Source: Sphingomonadales bacterium UBA2369
GTDB lineage: Bacteria; Pseudomonadota; Alphaproteobacteria; Sphingomonadales; Sphingomonadaceae
Reading direction: 5' to 3'
Length of the DNA: 64,000 bases
Assembly (NCBI GenBank): GCA_002344055.1
Contig: DDTH01000007.1
Span: 30,415-94,414, forward strand
Every line of letters begins with the position of its first letter. The first letter of the stretch is position 1. The notes beneath the pieces were generated by a model that was not told the DNA's origin, did not search any database, and worked only from the letters and a program-made list of their open reading frames with translations. The position numbers were made by a program, and so were the translations under genes. Of the stretch, positions 22,279 to 64,000 are shown one piece after another.

Positions 22279-22386
22279 GCGGCACCGGCCCACGCCCCCA
22301 CCCGGCCTCCCATCTAGGGTACGCTGTCTGGGTGGCCGGGTGGGGGCGTGGGCCGGTGCCGCACGGATTCAGCATAGCTGAATCCG
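22279..22386. repeat. Palindromic intergenic element: perfect 29-bp inverted repeat plus a 10-bp hairpin
   Basis: 22279-22307 is the exact reverse complement of 22334-22362; CGGATTCAGC-ATA-GCTGAATCCG at 22364-22386. Confidence 0.9.
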
Positions 22387-25004: not shown

Positions 25005-25149
25005 CCTCCCCTCCCTGCAAGGGAGGGGCCGGGGGTGGGTAGCGGCGTCGGGGCTCGATGCCCCGGCGGCGCTTTGAAACATCGGGGCGGAAAGATGCTC
25101 GCTTCGCTCGCACCCACCCCTCGATCCCCTCCCTTGCAGGGAGGGGAGG
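25005..25149. repeat. Palindromic REP/CIR-like element with 24-bp terminal inverted repeats
   Basis: CCTCCCCTCCCTGCAAGGGAGGGG (25005-25028) matches the reverse complement of 25126-25149 exactly; each end is itself a hairpin. Confidence 0.9.
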
Positions 25150-33075: not shown

Positions 33076-33091
33076 TCGCTCTCCCAAACTC

Positions 33092-33176
33092 GTCATGCCG
33101 GACTTGATCCGGCATCCACCTGCCTTTCGGCGGCCGGTCAAGAAGAAGGTGGACCCCGGATCAAGTCCGGGGTGAC
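33092..33176. repeat. Palindromic RPE/REP-like element between thiS and thiG
   Basis: GTCATGCCGGACTTGATCCGGCATCCACCT ... AGGTGGACCCCGGATCAAGTCCGGGGTGAC, imperfect 30-bp terminal inverted repeats. Confidence 0.88.
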
Positions 33177-33188
33177 AAGGAGAGTGGG

Positions 33189-62170: not shown

Positions 62171-62869
62171 ATGGCCAAGCTCACGAAGAAGCAGAAGGCG
62201 ACCGCCGAGAAGATCGACACCGATCGGCTGTACAATGTCGAGGACGCGATCAAGACGCTGAAGGCGAACGCCACGTCGAAGTTTGACGAGACGATCGAGA
62301 TCGCCCTGAACCTGGGCGTCGATCCGCGTCATGCCGACCAGATGGTCCGCGGCGTCGTGTCGCTGCCCGCGGGCACCGGCAAGGACGTCCGCGTCGCCGT
62401 CTTCGCCCGCGCCGCCAAGGCCGAGGAAGCCACGGCCGCCGGTGCGGAAGTCGTCGGCGCCGAGGATCTGATGGAGCAGATCCAGGCCGGCAATATCAAT
62501 TTTGACCGCGTGATCGCGACGCCCGACATGATGGGCATCGTCGGCCGCCTCGGCAAGGTGCTCGGCCCGAAGGGCATGATGCCGAACCCGAAGCTCGGCA
62601 CCGTCACCCCGAACGTCGCCGAAGCGGTCAAGGCCGCCAAGGGCGGTCAGGTCGAGTTCCGCGTCGAGAAGGCCGGCATCATCCACTCGGGCATCGGCAA
62701 GGCGAGCTTCTCCGACGCCGACCTGAAGCGCAATTTCGAGGCGTTCGTGGACGCCATCGTCAAGGCCAAGCCGGCCGGCGCCAAGGGCAAATATGTCCGC
62801 AAGGCCGCGATGAGCTCGACCATGGGCCCGGGCCTGAAGCTGGACGTCGCCGAGGTGGCGTCGGCCTGA
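62171..62869 (+). CDS. rplA: 50S ribosomal protein L1
   Basis: [38 protein letters not shown]. Confidence 0.99.
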
Positions 62870-62895
62870 GCCTTCGTACTTCGCGAAACAGAAAC

Positions 62896-62925
62896 GGGCC
62901 GGGGCGGAAACGCTCCGGCCCTTTT
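62896..62925 (+). terminator. Intrinsic terminator after rplA (possibly bidirectional)
   Basis: GGGCCGGGGCG-GAAA-CGCTCCGGCCC-TTTT, preceded by GAAAC. Confidence 0.8.
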
Positions 62926-62931
62926 CGTTGG

Positions 62932-63056
62932 CCGGTGCGGGAACCCCTGAAACGCGTAAGCCCCGCCAGTTTTACCTGGCGGGGCTCCTACCCTCGTCTC
63001 TTTCGATCTGAGGACATGGGTAGAACGGGCGATGCAGCCAGGGGTTCCCGCGCCGG
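62932..63056. ncRNA. Unassigned structured element downstream of rtcA (three-way junction)
   Basis: 18-bp closing stem 62932-62949/63039-63056, 11-bp hairpin 62959-62986, CTACCC/GGGTAG stem 62988-63023. Confidence 0.45.
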
Positions 63057-63077
63057 GCATGAAAATCTTCGCTCGCG

Positions 63078-64000
63078 TCAGGTTAGCGCCACCAGATGCG
63101 TGCCATCGGCCTGCTGCGCGAAGCCGAAGCGCCGCCCGGTGAACAAGGCGACGATGTCCGCCGCGGTGCGGGCATGCTGGCTCGGCTTCACCGTCGTGAA
63201 GCTGCCGCCCCCAGCCAGCGCGAAGGGCAGGATCAGCTGATCGGCCAGGTAAGGACCGGCAAAGGCCCGGCTGGCCAGATAGCCCGCCATGCGCTGCGCC
63301 GCTGTCTTGGCGAGCGCTTCCGACGACACGCCCAATTTCCCGAAGCCGGTCACGATCTCCGTCACGTTCGCGAACCGCGCTTCGAGCAGCAGGGCATTGC
63401 CCGGCCCGACCTGTTCCGGCAGCTGGCGCACCGCGAACGCCTCCTCCGGCCAATCCGGCAGCAGCTTGCGCGCCATCCTCAGCTCGCGCTCGGCAATCTC
63501 GAACGGCAGCGCCGCAATAAGCGCCGTGGCCGAACATGCCTCCAGCGGACCGCGCTCCATGCAATCGATCTTGCGGAGCGGCGCGGGCGTGATTTCCACT
63601 TCGATCCGGCCACCGCCTTTCGGAAAGAAACCATGCCGCACGAGCCGCGCCGTCGCCGTTGGCCCCATGCGATTGAGCACCGGCAGGAAGACGCGCTCGA
63701 TGAATTCGAACGGCGGCGCCATCATGTTATGGGTGCCGCCCTCCAGCACGAGCGTGGACGGCCCGTCGGCAAGGACGAGCGGCATCAGCACCGTCTGCAG
63801 CACCAAGCCCGTGCTCCCCGCCGTGCCGATCGCGAACCGATAGTCGCCGGCTGTCACCTTGCCCGGCCGGAAGGTCAGCTCCGACGAGCGCAATTCCAGC
63901 CCCTCGCACTCCGCCCCGCCAAGCGCGCAGGCGGCCTCGATCGCCGTCAGATGCTGCCGCATCAGCCCCGGTTTCTCGCGGCGGCCGCGGATGTTGGTGA
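63078..64000 (-). CDS. rtcA: RNA 3'-terminal phosphate cyclase (5' end outside the window)
   Basis: IRGRREKPGLMRQHLTA, IGTAGSTGLVLQT, GGTHN..APP, GFFPKGGG, YLADQLILP. Confidence 0.95.
   Translation of the reverse strand, partial: TNIRGRREKPGLMRQHLTAIEAACALGGAECEGLELRSSELTFRPGKVTAGDYRFAIGTAGSTGLVLQTVLMPLVLADGPSTLVLEGGTHNMMAPPFEFIERVFLPVLNRMGPTATARLVRHGFFPKGGGRIEVEITPAPLRKIDCMERGPLEACSATALIAALPFEIAERELRMARKLLPDWPEEAFAVRQLPEQVGPGNALLLEARFANVTEIVTGFGKLGVSSEALAKTAAQRMAGYLASRAFAGPYLADQLILPFALAGGGSFTTVKPSQHARTAADIVALFTGRRFGFAQQADGTHLVALT

Follow-up and report, generated by a model that had tools for sequence, protein, structure and literature searches.

A central post-transcriptional role in the general stress response of alphaproteobacteria is attributed to EcfG-dependent small RNAs (sRNAs). 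To our knowledge, GsrN of Caulobacter crescentus is the only one of them that has been studied in depth. The "GsrN-like" sRNAs of other Alphaproteobacteria are defined by their position (Tien et al. 2018, PMC5869019), and the same survey reported no GsrN counterpart in the one species of the sphingomonad order that it examined. The published sigmaT/EcfG promoter consists of GGAAC, 15-17 nt and CGTT (PMC5869019), and the EcfG motif of Sphingomonas melonis reads GGAAC-N17-20-GTT (PMC6599016). The locus described here carries such a promoter motif on the minus strand of the window (the whole stretch of 64,000 nt that was analysed), between rplA and rtcA. We propose that the minus-strand element is probably a compact, self-contained sRNA gene with an EcfG-type promoter and its own terminator, belonging to a conserved family.

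The spacer that holds the element is 208 nt long, from the rplA stop (62869) to the rtcA stop (63078-63080, minus strand). A previous reading of this DNA, made from the sequence only, had described in it an 18-bp outer stem with one G-T pair that encloses an 11-bp hairpin and a CTACCC/GGGTAG helix one base apart. These helices are real and their coordinates were right: the outer inverted repeat (62932-62949 / 63039-63056) even extends to 21 nt at 90% complementarity, and the minimum free energy fold contains a GC-rich stem of 11-12 bp with the CTACCC/GGGTAG helix one base off. The separate rplA terminator that this reading had placed at 62896-62925 was found again by a consensus terminator scan. 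It is common to rplA (plus strand) and, as a backstop, to minus-strand transcripts, be they rtcA read-through or the sRNA, and the closest relative has its homologue immediately after the rtcA stop. The features are the following, in window positions.

62896-62925, both strands: bidirectional intrinsic terminator, with an 11-bp stem (62896-62921) followed by TTTTCGTT on the plus strand
62932-62949, minus strand: 3' arm of the outer repeat, CAGGGGTTCCCGCACCGG, starting right after the sRNA U-run; an inverted copy of the -35 region
62950-63017, minus strand: predicted sRNA of about 68 nt, short form (match of covariance model R2 to G000:C21:93359-93470); predicted layout 5' tail, SL1, linker GGGUAGG, terminator hairpin and short U-run
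ending near 62950, minus strand: predicted sRNA tail, ACGCGUUU
62987-62976 / 62969-62958, minus strand: stem of the predicted sRNA terminator hairpin, 12 bp including a G.U pair, loop GUAAAA
63013-62992, minus strand: SL1, with a CCUC...GAGG outer stem, a UC/GA inner stem and a GAAA loop
63027-63024, minus strand: putative -10 element CGTT of the EcfG-type promoter (GGAAC-N16-CGTT, exact)
63048-63044, minus strand: putative -35 element GGAAC of the same promoter, inside the 5' arm of the outer repeat
63039-63056, minus strand: 5' arm of the outer repeat, CCGGCGCGGGAACCCCTG, upstream of the predicted transcription start
63078-63080, minus strand: rtcA stop codon TGA, 21 nt upstream of the outer repeat

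On the plus strand, the 141 nt that hold the element fold at -88.3 kcal/mol (z = -8.1; 0 of 200 shuffles were as good), and the same 141 nt on the minus strand fold at -83.4 kcal/mol (z = -7.25). With arms of 17 nt or longer, long-range inverted repeats number 79 in the genome and 8-9 in Markov-shuffled genomes. As such repeats are about nine times commoner than in the shuffled genomes, the structure is not due to chance.

The relatives of the element came from covariance models. A single-sequence model of the full three-way junction (R1) gave two marginal matches across the genus, both of them the homologous sRNA gene; together with two earlier "terminator" hits, these are four relatives that align to the minus-strand core of the element. 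They have in common with it the GGAAC-N16-CGTT motif, a hairpin around GAUCGAAAGA and a hairpin GGAGCCCCGCCnGGUnAAACnGGCGGGGCUUAC followed by a U-run, and one of them is identical to the element over 15 bases (GTTCTACCCATGTCC). A second model (R2) was built from these four relatives alone, leaving the element out. With it, the element reaches 49.9 bits (E = 2.3e-10), the best and only convincing match in this genome, and one strong match per genome (61-158 bits) is found in 22 of the 155 other genomes of the genus, a fraction whose low value may partly reflect the narrow model and the strict filters. With strict filters, R2 also detects members outside the genus, in seven further genera of Sphingomonadaceae.

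The structure is conserved along with the sequence. In the alignment of the 23 members (A6), 94.6% of the pair cells are standard pairs, compensatory changes occur at 15 of the 32 pairs (49 cells), and the covariation score is 0.218, versus at most 0.085 in slid controls and with none of 500 shuffles reaching 0.218. Helices 1 and 2 of the family are paired in 93-94% of cells and show compensatory changes, and the terminator hairpin GAGCCCCGCCnGGUnAAACnGGCGGGGCUU is the most conserved block of the family (99.6% of cells paired, compensatory G-C/A-U changes at three pairs). Conserved G.U pairs identify the minus strand of the window as the transcribed one. Rfam 15 gave no match for the element (62700-63300) at E <= 10. 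The comparison of full-length relatives with Rfam at gathering cut-offs or E <= 0.1 yielded nothing but hits below threshold that resemble terminators (ar35, 30 bits, with the cut-off at 45). No such RNA is listed in the study of the S. melonis EcfG regulon, in which the motif was searched upstream of coding sequences only (PMC6599016), or in the GsrN survey (PMC5869019). The suggestion of a new non-coding RNA, also made in the sequence-only reading, thus holds in the form of a structured family with strong covariation, and the present work is the founding description of this predicted sRNA family, conserved within the genus as well as in several further genera of Sphingomonadaceae and absent from Rfam.

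Within this family, the copy studied here has a reduced architecture. The predicted 68-nt sRNA taken alone folds into SL1 and the terminator (-34.8 kcal/mol, z = -5.1). Its SL1 overlaps the helix that had been read as CTACCC/GGGTAG and aligns with SL1 of two other short members, L210 (genome G491) and L211 (G545); its inner stem has only 2 bp, fewer than in most members. The 11-bp hairpin of the earlier description is its terminator hairpin, the stem of which is intact and includes a compensatory A-U pair also found in three other members. The U-run is short (UUU after ACGCG), comparable to those of L202-L204 and L207. The middle hairpin of the family (SL2, 12 bp with a UUCG loop) is absent, as it is from L210 and L211, and these three copies would form a short-form subgroup without SL2.

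The promoter motif, too, is a conserved part of the family. GGAAC-N16/17-CGTT stands 8-9 nt before the conserved 5' end. Of the 23 members, 19 have the exact motif, this copy among them, and the rest come close to it; the whole genome contains only 12 exact sites of this type. The 5' end of the sRNA was placed near 63017-63015 from the onset of family conservation, 8-9 nt after CGTT. The genome encodes PhyR (PF22029, PF22233 and a receiver domain) and a NepR-like peptide, and its ECF sigma factor gene is preceded by its own GGAAC...CGTT site. The scenario that we propose is as follows. Under general stress, RNA polymerase with EcfG would initiate near 63017 on the minus strand at GGAAC-N16-CGTT. 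The transcript would fold into the 5' hairpin SL1 and the GC-rich hairpin of an intrinsic terminator, and would end near 62950. By analogy with GsrN, the sRNA would then most likely act in trans on mRNAs by base pairing.

Two other observations concern the promoters. Outside the window, at C7:138013 (plus strand), an exact EcfG-type motif lies just past the nepR-kinase genes and is followed by seven C's (UUUUGCCCCCCCGC); this seems to be a candidate GsrN-like sRNA at the general stress response (GSR) locus, distinct from the family described here. In L190, L191, L193, L203, L207, L210 and L211, one to three conserved boxes that resemble a perfect DnaA box (TTATCCACAG / ATCCCCAG, about 10 nt apart) are found 15-45 nt upstream of the sRNA -35 element, in the spacer that separates the sRNA promoter from the divergently transcribed rplJ or rplK. 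They may bind DnaA or belong to the promoters of the ribosomal-protein genes. This genome, with rtcA in place of that flank, lacks the TTATCCACAG boxes.

What then is the outer stem? The 5' arm precedes the predicted transcription start and the 3' arm follows the U-run, so both arms lie outside the predicted transcript, and the sRNA itself probably does not fold as the three-way junction first proposed: the outer stem of that junction joins the -35 region to DNA past the terminator, in one species only. Indeed, the duplex between the promoter region and the post-terminator region has a z of -4.1 here, versus -1.6 to +1.9 in the 22 other members, and the outer stem is specific to this species. 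It has the appearance of an inverted 18-nt copy from the promoter region, placed just past the terminator. Its arms could pair only in RNA that reads through from rtcA, where a duplex of 18-21 bp would be a plausible target of RNase III, by analogy with Correia elements, whose terminal repeats form RNase III-sensitive stems in mRNAs (PMC2649163, PMC2229807). The case shows how, on the wrong strand, an inverted repeat that encloses a promoter and a terminator can be mistaken for a three-way-junction RNA.

The genome is rich in palindromes of other kinds. Five palindromic repeat families make up 45 of its 79 long-range inverted repeats, and the window itself holds three multi-copy palindromic families (22279-22362, 33089-33179 and 25005-25149). 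Many nested palindromes of about 130 bp have ends of the form CCTCCCC.../...GGGGAGG, and similar ones lie 3' of rtcA in L014 and L015. We considered an enrichment of palindromes 3' of rtcA and rejected it: long-range inverted repeats are found there at 2 of 77 sphingomonad loci, which equals the genomic base rate, taken roughly as about 79 inverted repeats per genome of some 3,000 genes.

The genomic position of the family is also conserved. Six of the 23 members adjoin rplA or rplJ, convergent with the former and divergent from the latter. Four occupy the nusG-rplK spacer, where they run towards nusG and away from rplK. About 10-11 of the 23 in total adjoin one of these gene pairs. In G483 the sRNA ends 70 nt from the rplA stop, versus 79 nt here, with the same geometry. 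Because relatives stand beside rplA, and at a similar spacing in G483, adjacency to rplA is a conserved feature, and the family is normally found antisense in the spacers of the nusG-rplKA-rplJL cluster. In this genome rplJL is located on another contig (C9:238647-239606, versus rplK-rplA at C21:92150-93283) and nusG about 10 kb upstream of rplK; the secE-nusG-rplKAJL cluster has therefore been broken twice. It is this lineage-specific rearrangement that brought the sRNA next to rtcA, and the rtc operon now abuts the sRNA promoter.

The closest relative shows the same neighbourhood without the sRNA. A convergent rplA/rtcA layout is present in one other genome only, G475 (locus L004; RtcA 93% and RplA 98% identical), where the spacer is 63 nt long and the terminator common to both genomes comes immediately after the rtcA stop. 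It follows that about 150 nt, including the element, are an indel. No copy of the sRNA was found anywhere in the G475 genome, which is 99% complete, and the indel is best read, by parsimony, as a loss in G475; we infer that the sRNA gene is dispensable in at least one lineage. A target-site duplication or microhomology at the L004 deletion was considered and set aside, the only trace being a weak and unconvincing AnCGAAnA similarity.

The alternative that survives best, unlikely as we judge it, is that the element is a decaying remnant of a family sRNA gene, homologous to the others and no longer yielding a functional RNA, which now merely serves as a structured 3' untranslated region of the rtc operon that generically blocks 3' exonucleases or, through its 18-bp stem, is cut by RNase III. 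This copy has the lowest score of the confident members, lacks SL2 and has a weakened inner SL1 stem and a short U-run, from which it could indeed be a decaying copy. In the same sense, the upstream box TTATCCACAG of the relatives is missing, the closest relative deleted the gene without replacement, and rtcA transcripts must cross the element to reach the terminator at 62896-62925. However, its promoter is an exact consensus and one of the 12 such sites in the genome. The intact terminator stem carries, in its A-U pair, a compensatory variant common to three other members, the form without SL2 recurs in two genomes (L210 and L211), and weak U-runs are also seen in members linked to rplA or rplJ (e.g., L202-L204 and L207). 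We therefore prefer to consider the copy as a short-form sRNA gene.

A role in cis is a further proposal. The conserved antisense placement in the ribosomal-protein spacers leaves room for such an effect: besides any role of the sRNA in trans, an antisense general-stress promoter in the nusG-rplK or rplA-rplJ spacer could cause transcriptional interference, as a stress switch that throttles read-through into rplKA or rplJL-rpoBC. In this species a second input, from RNA repair, might be added. Read-through of the operon driven by RtcR and sigma-54 would carry the sRNA in sense, and RNase III would cut at the 18-bp stem and so set the sRNA free, which would link RNA-damage signalling with the general stress response in this species. 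We regard this combined cis switch and second input as speculative and improbable.

Does the element then belong to the rtc operon? Beyond position 64000, where the sequence-only reading had pointed to possible rtcB, rtcR and Ro60 genes, all three are present: the minus strand carries a complete operon of rsr/Ro60, a YrlA-like array, rtcB, a Cys_rich_CPCC gene and rtcA, with rtcR divergent. About 110 nt upstream of rsr, on the minus strand and facing away from rtcR, lies a sigma-54-like site, TGGCACGCCTCCTGC (L003 8396-8410, window 67981-67995), which fits an RtcR-activated operon of rsr, Y RNA, rtcB and rtcA. The array consists of four to five YrlA-like modules between rsr and rtcB (L003 6082-6707, window 65667-66292, minus strand), with scores of 70.2 bits (the sole one above the Rfam cut-off), 39.0, 38.7 and 31.8, plus a weak YrlB-like stretch, and is 89-99% conserved in L004. 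The locus does have Y RNAs, therefore, at the canonical place. Between rtcB and rtcA, this genome has a 95-aa Cys_rich_CPCC gene (PF14206; L003 4511-4798, window 64096-64383, minus strand), where L004 (3255-4049) has an RlaP nucleotidyltransferase gene (PF10127) instead. Relative to this closest relative, dS is 0.59 for rtcA and 0.28 for rtcB and rsr, which suggests that the block of accessory gene and rtcA may have recombined. A mosaic origin of the rtcA block was among the explanations that we tried for the element; the dS values and the differing accessory gene are suggestive of it, but it does not account for the element.

That the whole 125-nt three-way junction is an RNA-repair RNA at the end of the rtc operon, be it a Y-RNA-like ligand of Ro60, a mimic of an RtcB/RtcA substrate or a signal for RtcR, is very unlikely. 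It is true that transcription past the rtcA stop would run through the element before it meets the only good terminator, so that read-through RNA would contain both arms and could form the 18-bp stem, and the outer repeat arose in the lineage where rtcA came to abut the element. Nevertheless, the YrlA, YrlB and Y_RNA models of Rfam returned nothing for the element at E <= 10, and the true YrlA-like modules stand between rsr and rtcB. At 157 other rtcA loci (77 from genomes, 80 from metagenomes) nothing homologous was found 3' of rtcA, and covariation among rtcA 3' flanks is consequently impossible. Five metagenome contigs of the same species have a spacer that is 100% identical, and hence hold no covariation information. 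The element is absent from the sole relative with the same rplA/rtcA layout, inverted repeats occur 3' of rtcA at the base rate, and the family is found mostly in genomes without rtcA: among the 22 other carriers in the genus, rtcA is present in only four, and relatives stand at places without nearby rtc genes. The tie to RNA repair put forward at first is thus not borne out, and the adjacency to the rtc operon is an accident of rearrangement, with no detectable link to RNA repair. Two further candidates were discarded. A self-cleaving ribozyme, hammerhead or other, has no Rfam match at E <= 10, in agreement with the sequence-only reading, which had seen no ribozyme core, and CUGAGGA, the only CUGANGA-like string read in the element, is in a hairpin tip and not in the junction. 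The resemblance of the inner hairpin to flagellin-type or other terminators (L184, L085, L186) is only that of generic GC-rich hairpins.

The weakest account, a solitary MITE- or REP-like mobile element that landed by chance after rtcA, had been suggested in the form of a fourth type of mobile palindromic element. In agreement with it, terminal inverted repeats of 18-21 bp enclose a core of 89 nt, which recalls the ~130-bp nested palindromes of this genome in size and layout, and unrelated nested palindromes lie 3' of rtcA in L014, L015 and L017. It has hardly any chance of being right, however. The element is a single copy; no direct repeat flanks its inverted repeats, and no convincing target-site duplication was seen. 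By homology, its core belongs to a chromosomal sRNA gene whose synteny is conserved, and the -35 region of that gene is the left "terminal repeat". In the 3.3-Mb genome, neither blastn (word size 7) nor the covariance model of the full junction found a copy beyond the element itself. No repeat copies were found with the terminal-repeat pattern in the species-representative genomes, with R1 in 400 genomes of the family, 156 of the genus and 80 rtcA loci, or with distant blastn in plasmids and phages. The inverted repeats do not mark the ends of the indel that separates this locus from L004, and two 14-mer matches (C7:210754 and C14:135865), which have no IS context, were dismissed as chance.

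Taken as a short sRNA gene in a conserved family, the element represents a second kind of candidate stress sRNA, this time in Sphingomonadaceae, with strong covariation and a conserved promoter. Its unexpected conserved site inside nusG-rplKA-rplJL, facing ribosomal-protein genes, offers a testable link between stress signalling and ribosome genes. At the same time, a tempting but wrong lead towards a new RNA-repair non-coding RNA is removed.

Three known systems may be compared with the element. It resembles Correia- and ERIC-type MITEs in its unit of about 125-130 bp, its inverted repeats of about 20 bp and the long duplex that would form upon co-transcription with a neighbouring gene; it differs from them in being unrepeated, in lacking a convincing target duplication and in having a conserved chromosomal sRNA gene as its interior. 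With YrlA and YrlB (RF02553, RF02565; Chen et al. 2014, PMC4201824) it shares a long terminal stem enclosing smaller hairpins and a location close to rsr-rtcB-rtcA under RtcR. However, it has neither the Ro60-binding helix (GGCGAAUGC.../...CUCGUCGCC) nor a mimic of a T-arm or D-arm, it gives no covariance-model match, and it follows rtcA instead of standing beside rsr. GsrN is the third system. No sequence similarity to it was detected, and the hairpins of the family described here end in UUCG or GAAA tetraloops, unlike the exposed, C-rich loop of GsrN. GsrN-like sRNAs are recognised by a C-rich 5' loop and a location near ecfG-nepR-phyR (PMC5869019), and here the sRNA is on C21 and the GSR locus on C7. 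What the two have in common is a short stand-alone gene with a sigmaT/EcfG-type promoter, a 5' hairpin and an intrinsic terminator (PMC5869019), in hosts that possess the PhyR-NepR-EcfG switch.
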